This document shows, in pieces, positions 37,390 through 59,266 of a stretch of 64,000 nucleotides of DNA (within the stretch, counting starts at the first letter, position 1; each line of letters begins with the position of its first letter). This DNA comes from a virus (taxonomy: Duplodnaviria > Caudoviricetes). The DNA lies in IMG/VR virus record IMGVR_UViG_3300032138_000009, positions 17,209 to 81,208 of that record; one strand, written 5' to 3'. A program made the position numbers and the translations under genes. The notes beneath the pieces were generated by a model that worked only from the letters and a program-made list of their open reading frames with translations, did no database searches and was not told where the DNA came from.

Positions 37390-37699
37390 TTCTATATAAT
37401 TCAGCTTCTTCTGGAGTCATTCTATTAAATAGTTTATCCATATTATTAGTCATTAGTTCTGAAATTTTAATGTCATATACATCACATAAGCGTTGTAGAT
37501 ACCATAAGACATCTCCGAGCTCATCTATAATAAGGTCAGTATTGTCTACTCTATCTCTTATTTCTTTCTTATATGCTCCACCAACTTCACCAGCTTCATT
37601 CATCAAACCTATCATTAGGTATTCTTTCTCTCTACGTTTAGGATACTTCGCTGTTCTGCGAGTAAAATCCTTATATGTTTCTTCTATTCCTTTTACCAT
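37379..37699 (-). CDS. mazG: MazG-like NTP pyrophosphohydrolase
   Basis: GLMNEAGEV..AYKK...DELGDVLWYL. Confidence 0.85.
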   Translation of the reverse strand: MVKGIEETYKDFTRRTAKYPKRREKEYLMIGLMNEAGEVGGAYKKEIRDRVDNTDLIIDELGDVLWYLQRLCDVYDIKISELMTNNMDKLFNRMTPEEAELYRNEN

Positions 37700-38013
37700 A
37701 TGTTTATCTCCTCTGGTATTCTTTTATTTCTTATCATCCACATTCTCTGAGCAGGTAAGTATCTATATACTAAATCTGCCTTCTTATCTGATTGTATAAC
37801 CCAAGGTTTTACTATCACTAAGTCATTCATACGAACCCACATACGTTTCTTTAGTCTGCCGGGTATACGTATCATTCTTGTTAGACCATCTTCACAAAGA
37901 GCTATAAGTCTAGAACCTCCTGACATTTCTTTTACTACCCCAAGTAGTTCATTATGTCTAGGTATTCTAGCTCTCTTTATAATGGGACTTGATTCTTTCG
38001 ATTTCTTCTTCAT
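37693..38013 (-). CDS. eif1a: Archaeal translation initiation factor 1A
   Basis: GVVKEMSGGSRL..LCEDG.TRMIRIPGRLKKRMWVR..DLVIVKPW..QSDKKADLVYRY; start probably ATG 38013. Confidence 0.9.
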   Translation of the reverse strand: MKKKSKESSPIIKRARIPRHNELLGVVKEMSGGSRLIALCEDGLTRMIRIPGRLKKRMWVRMNDLVIVKPWVIQSDKKADLVYRYLPAQRMWMIRNKRIPEEINIW

Positions 38014-41028: not shown

Positions 41029-41234
41029 TCCATACCCAGAGTTACTGGGTTATTTAAAGCTTTCGCTTTCACTATCTTTCCAGTTTTAGCATCTACATAT
41101 GCTCCAAACTTCGACACCTGTATCTCTTCTACAGGTTCTATCTTACTTTTTTTGTAGTCTTTATGTCTGGGTGCAGGACAATCTATATCATCCTTAATAC
41201 TACCCATACATATACCACAGAGTCGCCTAGCCAT
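41025..41234 (-). CDS. Putative zinc-finger micro-protein
   Basis: CGIC...C....H. Confidence 0.5.
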   Translation of the reverse strand: MARRLCGICMGSIKDDIDCPAPRHKDYKKSKIEPVEEIQVSKFGAYVDAKTGKIVKAKALNNPVTLGME

Positions 41235-45793: not shown

Positions 45794-45973
45794 TCATTCT
45801 TCTTCCTCGTCTAAATCAGGTTTCCATATACCATTATCCACTATACCTTTAAGCCATTCATCTTGATATCTCAGTGGCATTTGATAATGTATTATCTCGG
45901 CTATCGTGCTGATAGCGAATTTCAGTGCTTCTATCTCTTCGTTCTTTATCTTTTGATACTCTTGTATTTTCAT
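45794..45973 (-). CDS. Small hypothetical protein
   Basis: AGGAG SD before ATG 45973; TATA at ~46007. Confidence 0.5.
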   Translation of the reverse strand: MKIQEYQKIKNEEIEALKFAISTIAEIIHYQMPLRYQDEWLKGIVDNGIWKPDLDEEEE

Positions 45974-46018
45974 TTTTGTTTCTCCTAATATCATAATATT
46001 TCATTTTATTTAAAGGTT

Positions 46019-46491
46019 GTGGTAGAGAGAGATATAACCCAAAACAAAACTAAGAGATGTTCTCACATCAACACATCTATATACTTATCTTAACTACCGC
46101 TTAGGCTGTTGTGCAGGGGTATATGTGCTATCAGTATACCACAGCCATCCTTGTTTATCACTCGCAATGAGCTTACTCCTTGATGCTTGAAAGGTATACC
46201 TGCGTTCTCGGTCTAAGTAAAGATGTGTGTTCTCATAACTGTGAACGTATATCTTTATCTCCTCACCAGCAGAACGCTTTGATAGGTCTCGCTTGACGTA
46301 AAGGTAGACGCATAATGATTAGCTAATCTCCTTTACTTGGTTCTCTTATAGGTATCACCATATTGATACCATACCTATCTCATAGTGTTTAGTCCTACTC
46401 ATCCTACTTATAGATAGAGGTAGGGGTGGCCTTGTGTTATCACTATGTATATCTCAGTGGCTTCTGGGCGTATGATTCAAGTCTCTACCAC
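46019..46491 (+). ncRNA. Candidate large structured non-coding RNA (strand inferred from G-U pairs)
   Basis: No ORF in the track; nested long-range helices of 10, 8 and 7 bp plus several local hairpins, found by eye. Confidence 0.55.
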
Positions 46492-46526
46492 TTTAGTGGG
46501 ATAGAAGCGGAAAAAGGAGGTAAAAT

Positions 46527-46580
46527 ATGAGCCAACAAAAAAATGTTGTATTCCACTTCTATCCTATCACTGTGTTTTGA
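46527..46580 (+). CDS. Possible 17-aa peptide MSQQKNVVFHFYPITVF
   Basis: Perfect AAGGAGGT SD at 46514-46521. Confidence 0.3.
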   Translation: MSQQKNVVFHFYPITVF

Positions 46581-46839
46581 GTTTATCGTATGCTATTCCC
46601 ATAGCATCTTGTATTTGTTTCTGTGTTCTTATACGGCCATCAGAAGTATATAGGTTCAGTCCGTTATCAGATATAACTTCGTTAATCTCTTCAGCAGACC
46701 ATTTCTTATCTCCATACTTCTCATGACATATAGCCTTGATGAGTTTCATGCGAGGCTTCCCTAACTTTCCTATTACATTCATGCCCATATAAACATCCAC
46801 ATCCATATCATTATGAAGAAACCAATAAGCATATACCAC
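46567..46839 (-). CDS. Hypothetical protein (90 aa)
   Basis: GAGG SD; typical composition. Confidence 0.5.
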   Translation of the reverse strand: MVYAYWFLHNDMDVDVYMGMNVIGKLGKPRMKLIKAICHEKYGDKKWSAEEINEVISDNGLNLYTSDGRIRTQKQIQDAMGIAYDKLKTQ

Positions 46840-49745: not shown

Positions 49746-51098
49746 TTAGTCTCCCATTGACTGTATAGTTTGTATAACTCTTACTCTTTCAGTATCATCT
49801 CCACCTTGTATAGGATAGAATGGTAATACTGTATGCTTAAGTGCATCTAATAAAGACATACCATCTACTACTAACTCGGCTGAAGTTAAGCACATACGTG
49901 TTGAAACAGCTACGTTTAACTCTTCAGCTTTATATAAATCTCTAATCTTTTTAGAGAACTCAGTTATACGTCTTGCGTCATCCTCACTGATATGAGGGAC
50001 ACGCACTTGTAATAGTTCCTGCTCTTTCTTTTGAGGTAGGTAGTCTAATTCATATAAACCACCACAGAACCTATCCTTCCATGCTCTATCTAAATCATGC
50101 GCACAACCAAGATATTCTCTACCTATATTAGCAGTAGCATAGAAAAATGCACCACTATCTAAGTCTACTATATCAGCATCTTCACTTTCGTCTAATGCTA
50201 AATACTTCTGACCATCTAATACAGGCATAAGGATATTGGCTAAGTCTCCGGTTCTATCTCTCGTAATTTCATCGAGCATTATAAACCCTCCACTGTTATC
50301 AGTTATAGCTGAAACAAACCTACTTGGTTTAAACCATGTCCCTTCTTCTTTGCTAAACTTAGTATCACCTAATATCTTAGCTGAAGGATTCATCGTATCA
50401 CCGAAGTTAAACGAATAAAAAGGTTTATTGGTTATATCTGCGAGTATCTTACCGAGACTACTCTTACCACAACCACTTGGCCCTGTCACAAGTATGTTCC
50501 TACCTCTAAAGATATTCCTTAGCATAGTGTAGAATGTCATATCATCAGTGAATTTAAATTCTTCTGGGATAGACACTGAAGCTTTAAGCTTACCTATAAC
50601 ACTATCATCTATGATAGGCTCAGGTTCCTCTTCAGGTATAGCCTCTGCTACACCCATTCCAATCATCGCTTCAGACATATCATCCCAATCACTCATCAAA
50701 GTATCTTCAAATATATCATCTATACCAAATAACTCTCGATAATCATCTCTTACGCTATATGCGTCATGCTCTAAGGGTTCATCGGCCCTATCCTCTGCTA
50801 ACACGGGTGAATCTTCTTCACCTCTATACGTTTCACTCTCGTAACTCATATCTTTTCCTTTTGAAACCCCATCGGGGCTTAAACTTACATCGTCTTTAGA
50901 GTATTTAAAGGTTTCTGATGCCTTATACTCTTCCTTAATTTTCTCTATATCTTTCTCAAGACCAAGAATCATACTCTTGTATTCTTCCTTAGCCCATTCA
51001 GTCAAGTCATCAGACTCCATATGCTTAGTATATATCTCTATCTGTTCAACCTTTCGTTCTATATCATACCTCAACTTTACAAACATTTCACTACTCAC
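49746..51098 (-). CDS. MoxR-family AAA+ ATPase with acidic N-terminal extension
   Basis: GPSGCGKS, MLDEITR, ATAN, LDRAWKDRF; near the vWA gene. Confidence 0.88.
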   Translation of the reverse strand: MSSEMFVKLRYDIERKVEQIEIYTKHMESDDLTEWAKEEYKSMILGLEKDIEKIKEEYKASETFKYSKDDVSLSPDGVSKGKDMSYESETYRGEEDSPVLAEDRADEPLEHDAYSVRDDYRELFGIDDIFEDTLMSDWDDMSEAMIGMGVAEAIPEEEPEPIIDDSVIGKLKASVSIPEEFKFTDDMTFYTMLRNIFRGRNILVTGPSGCGKSSLGKILADITNKPFYSFNFGDTMNPSAKILGDTKFSKEEGTWFKPSRFVSAITDNSGGFIMLDEITRDRTGDLANILMPVLDGQKYLALDESEDADIVDLDSGAFFYATANIGREYLGCAHDLDRAWKDRFCGGLYELDYLPQKKEQELLQVRVPHISEDDARRITEFSKKIRDLYKAEELNVAVSTRMCLTSAELVVDGMSLLDALKHTVLPFYPIQGGDDTERVRVIQTIQSMGD

Positions 51099-54945: not shown

Positions 54946-55559
54946 ACGTTTACGGGGGATACCCTGTATTAGTGAGTGACTGAATAAACCTATCCCAATG
55001 GGTTAAAGTATTCGAAGTTGCCCCAACGTGCAAGTGCATGAGGGGATACTTAGAAGTGAGCCGAAAAAAATAACTACTAATTGTAGTTGGGTTTTGGCTT
55101 TGAGGGTATACAAGAAATCCCTTCTCACACTTACGTTTATATAGCTATATAATAGGCGTGAACATATAAAAATCATTCGCACGTTAGCATAGAAAGAGAA
55201 GACATAAGTATAGACCCATCCCTCTTGGAGATACATTAAGTCCCTTGTTAGGAGTATATTATTTAAAGTGCCGTAGGACGCCCTTTCTCAAACTTAATTA
55301 GATAACTCACCGTATATGTTGAATCATACCACTATTACTTTCTCATTCTCTCTAAGATGTATCGTCATGATTTCAATTATATGTGCGGGTTCTCACCTGA
55401 ATGGAAACGTTTTGTCAGAATCCCACGCCACCTTATAATGACAAATGTTCTAAACAGGAGGGTGTTAAAGTGGGACGCCCAATCCCTTATATAGGGACGC
55501 CCTCCGAAGTGAACAATTTTTTTTTCGCCAAACCTTGGGGAGTTTAGGCCCCCCTAAAT

Positions 55560-57448: not shown

Positions 57449-57640
57449 ATTTTCCTCTATATATAACGTAGCGAGAGAGTATATAAAGCTTTGTTTCTAA
57501 ATAGTATATAAACCTCCTCCTGCCTTATATACCCTCCTTTAGGTTCCGCTCAACATTTTTGAAAATTGTTTGTGCTCAGATGGAATAAATTGAAATTTTA
57601 GGCCCCAAACCTTGAAACCGAAAGGTTTATATATGAATAC

Positions 57641-57716
57641 TGGCAGTCTGAGGGGGATTCGAACCCCCGTCCTTAGGTCGAAAGCCTAAGATGCTGGGCC
57701 ACTACACTATCAGACC
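57641..57716 (-). tRNA. trnE: tRNA-Glu (anticodon TTC), CCA encoded
   Basis: GGTCTGA/TCAGACT acceptor stem, TTAGG-CTTTCGA-CCTAA anticodon arm, GGGGG-TTCGAAT-CCCCC T-arm, 3' GCCA. Confidence 0.93.
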
Positions 57717-58074
57717 AGTATAATAAGGTTGTTGGCTGGGGTGCTCCAGAACCCCTCACACTAACCACAGGTTTCCAACTGCGTGCCTCCGGTGGGCCCA
57801 AGTCAAATACACCCTAGACACGCGTGCCTCTTGATATATTTGCTTTTTTGTGCTTCGCTCTCCGTTGTCAAACGGCCAACGTTATTTTTCTTCGGATTAT
57901 ACCCGAATATTTAAAACGACTAGAAAGTTTCACACCTGAAGGGTAAGATTCTAGAAGTCTATCCTTCGTGTTCTTTGACTAGATGTTAGAAAATTAATAG
58001 AATGTGACTAAAAAATAGTATACATTACTTAATATATAAATGCTCATTGCTAAGCTAAAAATGATTAAATCCAT

Positions 58075-58218: not shown

Positions 58219-59266
58219 ATCTTTTACTCCTATTATTAACGTAGCGACAAAGTATATAAAGGTATGGGTCATTTTAGTATATAAGGGTCGAGGGGGTATA
58301 TATAGGGGCATATACGTCCCGCTCACCCTTTTTGGGGCGCCAAACCTTGGATAGAGGGGGGGGTATAGAGGGGTCGCCCCCCTATATGGGCGTGTGCTGT
58401 ATATGCTATATGCTTATGCGTATTGCCTTGATGCTATAGACATTACGACTAATACATCTGACAAATATGTTTGATATGAATCCATTGTTTTACCTCTAAT
58501 ATACCATAGCGAGCGAGCATATAAAGGTATGGTTGAAGTGGGAACCGGGGTTGAAAATGAGTGCCACCCCCTCCAAACCTTGGGACTTTTTTAAAAAAAA
58601 TGGGGAGGGGGGGATTTATTTTTTTAAATCCTTTGCTTGAAAGATGAAATTTTTTGCATCGTATTCTTCGATTCTTTTTTTATCTTTTTTAATTTGTTTA
58701 TCCAAAAGGTCTTCGATTTTTTTTAGTCCCTCGAGGGTCATGGATACTGTGCCCACTTCCTTTAATAACATGTTTAACCCCTGTTCCATGTTGAATTACG
58801 GGTCGGGGTGTCCATGCGGGATGTCTGTGCCCATATGTGCTGTGCCACTGTGCGGGCTATTACTGCCTTGTTGTGGTTATCTACTTGCTGTTGTGTTATT
58901 GTGGTGTTCATTTCTTTTACCTCTATATTACACATGGCGTGCAAGTATATAAGCTTATGGGTTAAACAAGTATATAAGCTACCTCTATGTTTATATACTA
59001 AGATATAGAAACCGGTCATCATTTATGCATCTCTTTTGTCTCTTCTCTGAAAACACCCCCCGTCTAAAAAATCAAGGCCCCCACCACGCCACAACGAGGG
59101 GTAGGGGTTCAAACAAATCGAGCTAAATTTTGAAACCTATATAAAGCAATACTAGTGGTTATACTATATCTATATAGGGTCTTTATTAAGCTCTATAAAT
59201 CACACCAACAACAACCTTTAAATATACCCAGCGTATTACCACTACAGTACTCAAAATGGAGAAACG

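Follow-up and report, generated by a model that had tools for sequence, protein, structure and literature searches.

A conserved multi-helix RNA fold of an undescribed family in a gene-free gap of marine, probably archaeal, viruses

What does a virus keep in a 572-nt stretch of its genome that appears to encode no protein? We asked this of the window analyzed here, a stretch of 64,000 nt from an 81-kb IMG/VR virus record, in which minus-strand genes predominate from ~27 kb to ~54 kb and the interval 45995-46566 is the largest gene-free gap of that region. The minus strand of the gap, i.e., the gene strand, has no ORF of at least 30 aa, the plus strand has only a 38-aa and a 34-aa ORF, and no frame is open across the related versions of the locus, in agreement with an earlier note that had described the gap as ORF-free and had proposed that it holds a large structured RNA, antisense to the surrounding operon. 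We show that the gap holds a conserved multi-helix RNA fold of an undescribed family, which most likely belongs to the minus strand; the transcript itself, its ends and its strand are all predicted from sequence comparison.

Gene context and relatives of the element

In the direction of transcription, the gap is preceded on the minus strand by a CbbQ-type AAA ATPase, a 709-aa VWA/CobT-like protein and two small ORFs, and followed, also on the minus strand, by a small ORF, a 59-aa ORF, an ATP-dependent DNA ligase and RecU. The 709-aa protein contains a VWA domain (a weak Pfam match of 26.4 bits) and gives faint CobT_C matches, and it is paired with a CbbQ/MoxR-type ATPase, as in CobS-CobT; neither a TROVE domain nor a PDB relative was found for it. 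The first gene after the RNA (45794-45973, minus) is listed as a 66-aa ORF, whose first ATG falls within conserved promoter-proximal sequence. It probably starts at the second ATG (45973), with an AGGAG Shine-Dalgarno sequence 8 nt upstream, and would then encode 59 aa with no family match. Family searches with the flanking small proteins gave no match either.

Additional genes bear on the identity of the host. The virus encodes aIF-1A of the archaeal/eukaryal type (37693-38013, minus; NF003084, 109.7 bits vs an NCBIfam cut-off of 91), as well as PolB, PolX, a ribonucleotide reductase and the CobS/CobT-like pair. The PolB relatives in our search were all at most 23% identical, and a pattern scan with aIF-1A for the host found no close cellular relative. 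This gene content fits magrovirus gene sets (PMC10160649, PMC11706807). The host is probably an archaeon, and the virus probably a member of a magrovirus-like marine clade.

A scan of the whole window against Rfam at gathering thresholds returned a manA RNA and one tRNA only, both elsewhere than the gap. The tRNA-Glu(UUC) at 57641-57716 (minus) is the sole tRNA in the 64-kb window, lies 11 kb from the element and sits within a second large gene-free gap (57449-58074, 626 nt). The manA RNA (RF01745) is located at 54951-55133 (plus; 72.6 bits vs a cut-off of 55.2). Cyanophages and Photobacterium are known carriers of manA, which here occurs in a virus with genes of archaeal type.

Related contigs were gathered via homologues of the ligase, and the same gap was present in all those that extended far enough upstream. 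Another 40 loci came from a pattern scan of metagenome contigs, and a scan of viral contigs gave four further records with the element, which were repeats of known versions or one new version; the viral matches L058 and L059 were dismissed as chance. This yielded 30 distinct full elements of 194-687 nt, which together with L143 and L144 (among six loci, L143-L148) make ~32 versions from marine virus contigs. The version in the window is referred to as WIN, and its sense coordinate, s, equals 46492 minus the window coordinate. Each complete viral genome has one copy of the element, and no extra copies of the stalk or of a module (both described below) were found in the window or in four whole genomes. 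The position of the element is constant in all versions, between the CobT/VWA gene block and the promoter of the block comprising the small ORF and the DNA ligase. The gene that precedes it is not fixed, since in L004 and L143-L148 the 122-aa and 90-aa genes are absent, and a small hydrophobic ORF (…EAEWY…MIWMWM…) ends at the upstream hairpin, H0, instead.

Nucleotide identity in the gap reaches 75-90% in blocks, above the expectation from the neighboring proteins: in L008, the gap is 84% identical over 264 nt, with 64% amino-acid identity in the ligase. Even between viruses whose ligases are only 55-57% identical, the stalk motifs are the same, the sequences kept being …UGGUAGAGAC…CAUACGCCC… and …GUUUNGGG.UAUAUCUCUCUCUACC. 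A protein-coding gene or pseudogene was considered and rejected: the best frame has at least two stops in 29 of the 30 versions, the internal ORFs are 20-69 aa at longest and unconserved, and the elements range in length from 194 to 687 nt, where a gene should show a conserved open frame and indels in multiples of three. Beyond these contigs, blastn against 50,697 phage records gave no match, and a search of 185,579 species genomes with the stalk pattern gave 77 matches, all of which are considered chance because none carries both stalk ends.

A near-invariant stalk and a crown of modules

The 5' and 3' ends of the 473-nt stretch at 46019-46491 (minus) pair into a near-invariant basal stalk that consists of three helices, P1, P2 and P3. 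P1 sets the ends of the domain: its 5' strand (GUGGUAGAGA, 46482-46491) pairs with its 3' strand (UCUCUACCAC, 46019-46028), i.e., s1-10 with s464-473, and a promoter motif follows directly after. This helix (GTGGTAGAGA/TCTCTACCAC) is kept in 30 of 30 versions, with 295 of 300 cells Watson-Crick; 22 versions have G-C at the end pair and 6 have U-A, and at the second pair U-A occurs in 27 and U·G in 2. P2 is formed by CCCAGAA (46462-46468) and UUUUGGG (46038-46044), and its strands covary. One of its positions is U-A in 12 versions, C-G in 9 and A-U in 10, with zero mismatches, and another is A-U in 27, G-C in 3 and U-A in 1; overall, 93.5% of its cells are paired, vs 81.7% with shuffled partners (0/2000). 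P3 joins CUGAG (46453-46457) to CUUAG (46050-46054) and has a compensatory middle pair, which is mostly G-C, G·U in WIN, L017 and L025, and A-U in L004, L027, L039 and L049. Since the compensatory changes in P1-P3 span inserts of 194-687 nt, the element is one fold and not a string of units.

The complementary arms listed in the earlier note are all found in the sequence (I7, 46019-28/46482-91; I12, 46029-36/46448-55; I22, 46051-57/46342-48; I20, 46298-04/46330-36; and I2, a 14-18-bp stem). Of the three long-range pairs that were proposed from them, the outermost is P1. The other two, GAGATATA/TATATCTC and TAAGAGA/TCTCTTA, did not hold up, as they show no covariation and cross or compete with the covarying P2 and P3, which had been missed. 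The stalk also includes a 3-nt bulge with a 5x2 internal loop on the far side, and in some versions a 4-bp GAUA/UAUC helix that is absent from WIN. A bulge-helix-bulge motif, which consists of two 3-nt bulges on opposite strands around a 4-bp helix, was rejected on these grounds, i.e., the internal loop opposite the bulge and the failure of WIN to keep the helix.

On this stalk sits a crown of separately folding modules, namely P4, a three-way junction, P6, P7 and a 3' part, which in WIN follow one another nearly linker-free as five domains, the 3' part being the less certain. The P4 domain (46381-46447) is closed by CAUAGUG (46441-47) and CACUAUG (46381-87) around a variable inner hairpin; its helix is invariant in the WIN-like group and is replaced by AUAAGUG/CACUUAU in L015, L019 and L050. 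The three-way-junction module (46275-46383) comprises P5 (46373-79/46281-87), P5a (46364-70/46351-57) and P5b (46330-36/46298-04), with conserved junction strands, ...GAACCAAG and GUCAAGCGA, and a conserved loop, CUAAUCAUUAUG. P6 (46202-46277) is closed by GCGUUCU (46271-77) and AGAACGC (46202-08), has a conserved internal loop (GCUGGUGAGGAG / UUAGACCG) and encloses a 14-bp stem-loop at 46219-46256; its GCGUU/AACGC becomes GUGUU/AACAC in L017, and the module was found in 17 distinct versions with a covarying inner stem. In P7 (46133-46200; GGUAUACC, 46193-200, with GGUAUACU, 46133-40), the inner two pairs covary as CC/GG, GA/UC and UA/UA (columns 421/529 and 422/528). The 3' crown region (46055-46132), modeled from single-sequence folds, is the most variable part of the alignment (A2). 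All of these domains are given on the minus strand.

The junction module was examined with a covariance model (R1) that scores WIN at 122.6 bits and matches once per element and once per whole genome. In the alignment fitted to this model, 89.4% of the cells are paired, and compensatory changes occur in 20 of the 26 pairs (94 cells). The covariation score is 0.371 vs 0.155 for shuffles, with 0/500 shuffles reaching the observed value, and pairing falls to 26-48% when the partners are slid; a plain MAFFT seed gave a matching picture. Several of the internal stems in the earlier note fared well in these comparisons: GCGTTCT/AGAACGC, GTAAAGG/CCTTTAC, GGTATCA/TGATACC and CATAGTG/CACTATG are all backed by compensatory changes. 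The combination of GGCTGT/ACAGCC with GGTATA/TATACC, in contrast, is genome-specific and unconserved, and it competes with the covarying P7. The note's broader proposal of a large, multi-domain structured viral RNA is borne out by conserved and covarying helices in both stalk and crown across ~32 versions, with ends exactly at 46019 and 46491.

These data bear directly on the alternative that the pairings arose by chance in a decayed gene or junk spacer. A lone inverted repeat of 10 bp would not be unusual by chance in 570 nt (~0.15 expected, by our estimate). However, conservation, covariation and a fixed position in ~32 versions, together with the absence of an open frame, already refute this explanation, the probability of which we regard as negligible.

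The crown is as variable as the stalk is constant. It ranges from two hairpins in the 194-nt element, which lies at 3884-4077 of L014 (minus), to many modules in that of 687 nt, drawing on a shared pool of roughly ten module types whose order differs between versions. Its stems vary with compensatory changes, and its junction strands and several of its loops are fixed. An example is a pair of Tara contigs, L143 and L144, which have an identical ligase protein, a downstream flank matching at 1499 of 1500 nt and VWA genes that are 98% identical. Their crowns are 374 nt (L143, 2673-3046) and 474 nt (L144, 2573-3046) long and differ by the replacement of entire modules, and by hairpin stems that are exchanged in a fully compensatory manner with their loops constant. 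This pattern fits the swapping of modules by recombination, which the invariant flanks may favor, the pattern itself being no proof of diversifying selection. Many metagenome contigs end at the element, as expected of a strain-variable site.

Could the locus then be an element that acts as DNA, e.g., an origin of replication, an inverted repeat bound by protein or a hot spot of recombination, with hairpins that are cruciform or incidental? Its single copy per genome, the invariant P1 arms flanking a recombining segment and the many contigs that break inside or next to it would all be compatible with such a role. Against it, at least seven helices have compensatory changes whose G·U intermediates occur on one strand, which points to selection on RNA, and the region lacks iterons or direct repeats. 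As for an origin, the GC skew follows transcription, with turning points at ~27 kb and ~58 kb and no switch at 46 kb. We thus view a DNA-level element as very improbable. Part of the conservation of the stalk could nevertheless be at the DNA level, as the invariant 3' stalk adjoins a promoter.

Strand and transcriptional setting

An RNA fold can in principle be read from either strand, and folding energy does not decide between them. The folding z-score of WIN is -2.35 on the plus strand and -3.5 on the minus strand, more than expected by chance, and short relatives gave -5.1 and -3.1. Both strands are thus strongly negative; the minus-strand minimum free energy is lower in 9 of 11 versions, and the plus strand folds better in the three shortest.

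Wobble pairs are more informative, given that a G·U pair on one strand is an A·C mismatch on the other. When read on the minus strand, the ratio of G·U to A·C is 45:10 in the junction module (21:4 in a MAFFT-only alignment), 23:5 in P2 and 49:22 in the upstream hairpin H0, and the variable positions of the stalk all vary via G·U and none via A·C. In addition, all 32 instances of the R1 model lie in the minus orientation of the element, and the neighboring genes and the promoter motif just 3' of the RNA share that orientation. Given the ~2-5-fold excess of G·U over A·C on the minus strand in every supported helix, we consider it very likely that the RNA lies on this strand, in the sense orientation of the operon, and not antisense to it as originally suggested.

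One stem gives the opposite signal. The 14-bp stem at 46219-46256 had been noted for three G·U pairs that form only on the plus strand. These pairs are real and fall within GAUAUAC...ACACAUC, in which the minus strand has three A·C instead. This sequence is invariant in the relatives, and since it never varies, we take it to be a specific motif and not simply a helix; its signal is outweighed by that of the other helices.

The gap also contains the hairpin H0 (46495-46566, minus; arms 46551-64/46499-12), which extends from the stop codon of the 90-aa gene to 3 nt before P1. Its stem of 13-14 bp covaries (AGAAG/CUUCU, AGGGG/CCCCU, AGGAG/CUCCU) and includes a near-invariant U·G wobble on the minus strand, which is U-A in two versions. 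Its loop combines a U-run (U5-U7 in most relatives) with invariant CUCA and ACCUC. A U-run such as this could terminate archaeal transcription, in this case before the RNA. On the plus strand, the same loop presents a conserved GAGGT, a spacer and then ATGAG, resembling a ribosome-binding site and start codon. The mini-ORF that would follow is 7-21 codons long and, as its frame differs from one relative to another, does not encode a conserved peptide.

A plus-strand RNA antisense to the operon, or transcription of both strands as in antisense-RNA control systems, would account for the unchanging plus-strand G·U motif, for this start-like sequence in the H0 loop and for plus-strand z-scores that are as good, or better in short versions. 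The excess of G·U over A·C on the minus strand in P2, H0 and the junction module speaks against it, as do the near-invariant U·G of H0, which would become a C·A mismatch on the plus strand, and the shifting frame of the mini-ORF. Moreover, no plus-strand promoter was found, in line with the earlier note, and the oriented motif described next points the opposite way; were transcription to start ~26 nt beyond a reversed TATA, P1 would be lost from the transcript. On balance, we consider a plus-strand RNA quite unlikely, and the minus strand is used in what follows.

The element ends 0-2 nt before a promoter-like motif of the TATA type, AACCTTTAAATAA (46006-46018, minus), which is invariant in the relatives. 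An oriented form, AA(C/G)CTTTAAATA, occurs 21-33 nt before a gene start at 41050, 43240, 46006 and 53816 (minus) and recurs at 50901 and 56126 (minus) and at 59213 (plus); it is probably the BRE/TATA promoter of the virus's middle genes. Because the same oriented motif precedes other gene starts, we read AACCTTTAAATAA as a TATA-type promoter of the next transcription unit. If that unit begins at its own promoter directly after P1, its mRNA would omit the RNA. Searches for a promoter or terminator belonging to the RNA itself found neither: TATA-like stretches in the H0 loop and inside the 90-aa gene were considered as its own promoter and rejected, both being too poorly conserved.

This setting raises the possibility of a cis-acting boundary element at the 3' end of the upstream mRNA, one that blocks 3' exonucleases or limits read-through into the next promoter. 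In such a scheme, closure of P1 could also place the ACCUCC loop of H0 by the Shine-Dalgarno sequence of the next gene, thereby damping translation on read-through transcripts. The fixed site between two transcription units, which runs from the upstream stop codon to 0-2 nt before the TATA-type promoter, is in keeping with a boundary, as are the lack of an RNA-specific promoter or terminator and the constant presence of the anti-Shine-Dalgarno-like ACCUC in the H0 loop. Yet a boundary or stabilizer would not need 200-690 nt of fixed-loop junctions, and most mRNA of the next gene, with a promoter of its own, would not include the RNA. The H0 loop is also mismatched to the spacing of the downstream start region, and a genome search for a target in trans of this anti-start-site loop gave no match beyond chance, other start sites included. 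We therefore hold a boundary role to be unlikely, if still worth keeping in mind.

Known RNAs and a possible role

To place the stalked RNA among described families, the region 45900-46700 and the 194-nt version were scanned against Rfam 15 (cmscan, permissive filters, E<=10). All that was returned was noise of at most 18 bits, compared with cut-offs of 35-86. The families within the scan included RNase P, SRP, tmRNA, group I/II introns, GOLLD, ROOL, OLE, HEARO and raiA, as well as IMES-1 to 4, manA, Y RNA, 6S, hammerhead and other ribozymes, and C/D and H/ACA RNAs. The earlier note's view that the RNA is not RNase P, SRP, tmRNA or an intron thus agrees with the absence of any Rfam family beyond noise at E=10. 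Literature searches by topic and by motif string found nothing relevant on the element, and no published large structured ncRNA was found for viruses of archaea.

Several small motifs were also tried. A cluster of C/D box sRNAs, which would require RUGAUGA and CUGA boxes with a guide spacing of ~12 nt, was rejected: WIN has no exact UGAUGA, the CUGAUGAG of its relatives is a strand of an ordinary helix, and the Rfam C/D models gave no match. A hammerhead starting from CUGAUGAG could not be verified by hand, and the Rfam ribozyme models gave no match. GA-rich internal loops are common (e.g., GCUGGUGAGGAG/UUAGACCG and GGAUGAAAG), and by hand none could be placed in the canonical k-turn register of C-stem, 3-nt bulge, tandem sheared G·A/A·G and NC-stem.

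In size, the element is comparable to GOLLD and ROOL, as had been suggested. GOLLD (RF01998) and ROOL (RF03087) are large ornate RNAs, often borne by phages or prophages, that form RNA-only cages (PMC12286853). Like them, the element is virus-borne, several hundred nt long and multi-domain, has conserved and variable parts and has no known biochemical role. Its conserved loops on variable stems would also fit tertiary or quaternary contacts. Unlike them, it is wholly closed by a near-invariant stalk formed from its two ends and its host is probably archaeal, and it matches neither covariance model at E=10. GOLLD and ROOL typically adjoin tRNA genes, whereas the element does not. A second comparison is with manA, a ~190-nt marine/cyanophage motif that assembles into cages of 8 to 60 subunits via kissing loops (bioRxiv 10.64898/2026.07.01.735769). 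The element resembles it as a marine virus RNA with a conserved core and variable peripheral helices, and a true manA copy is present in the same virus; however, the manA model has no match in the gap, and size and architecture are unlike.

Two further likenesses concern the stalk. In Y RNAs bound by Ro60/Rsr, a basal stem formed by the ends serves as a protein handle beneath variable upper modules. Ro60 carries a VWA domain, and a VWA gene lies just upstream of the element. The resemblance goes no further, as the Y_RNA models gave no match; a Ro60-like partner was rejected given that the 709-aa neighbor has no TROVE domain. The pRNA of phi29-type phages, which is 120-174 nt long and encoded near the genome end, is likewise a virus-encoded RNA with a helix of its 5' and 3' ends, an apical domain and a structure that is kept while the sequence drifts. 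It differs in that it has no match to the element, for which no link to packaging genes was seen.

How might such an RNA work? Transcription of the upstream CobS/CobT-like operon may read through into the element, and the transcript would then be trimmed to a stable RNA species. The invariant stalk could be a handle recognized by its sequence, whether by a conserved protein of the virus or host or by a processing enzyme, and the conserved loops and junctions of the crown could make tertiary, RNA-RNA or protein contacts. Its action would then be in trans, as an RNA or RNP, and not that of a switch controlling a single gene. As to function, our best guess is a stable RNA that offers a handle for protein binding. 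To the reading as a whole, i.e., a structured ncRNA of an undescribed family, on the minus strand, in a clade of marine and probably archaeal viruses, we assign a probability of roughly 60%. This is lower than our confidence in the strand because it also takes in the ideas that the RNA is processed to a stable form, that its stalk is a handle and that it acts in trans.

A bolder and rather doubtful idea is that the element is an archaeal-virus counterpart of the RNA-only assemblies formed by ROOL, GOLLD and manA. Such a 'handle-and-crown' RNA would dock its stalk on a conserved partner, and its recombination-swapped crown modules would keep fixed loops (CUAAUCAUUAUG, UAUGG, GAAA) because these loops assemble into a multimeric particle of RNA or RNP, or else capture host factors, as the virus infects uncultured marine archaea.

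What is new here is the family and its architecture and not a proven mechanism, as the category of large ornate viral RNAs already exists. The family is well defined, with ~32 versions, a minimal form of 194 nt, clear ends and a fold backed by covariation. Viruses of marine archaea are abundant but uncultured, and this element is amenable to synthesis, probing and imaging without a host. The question it poses is what reads the unchanging stalk and what the recombining modules bind. Together with the true manA in the same genome, it suggests a heavy investment in structured RNA by such viruses.
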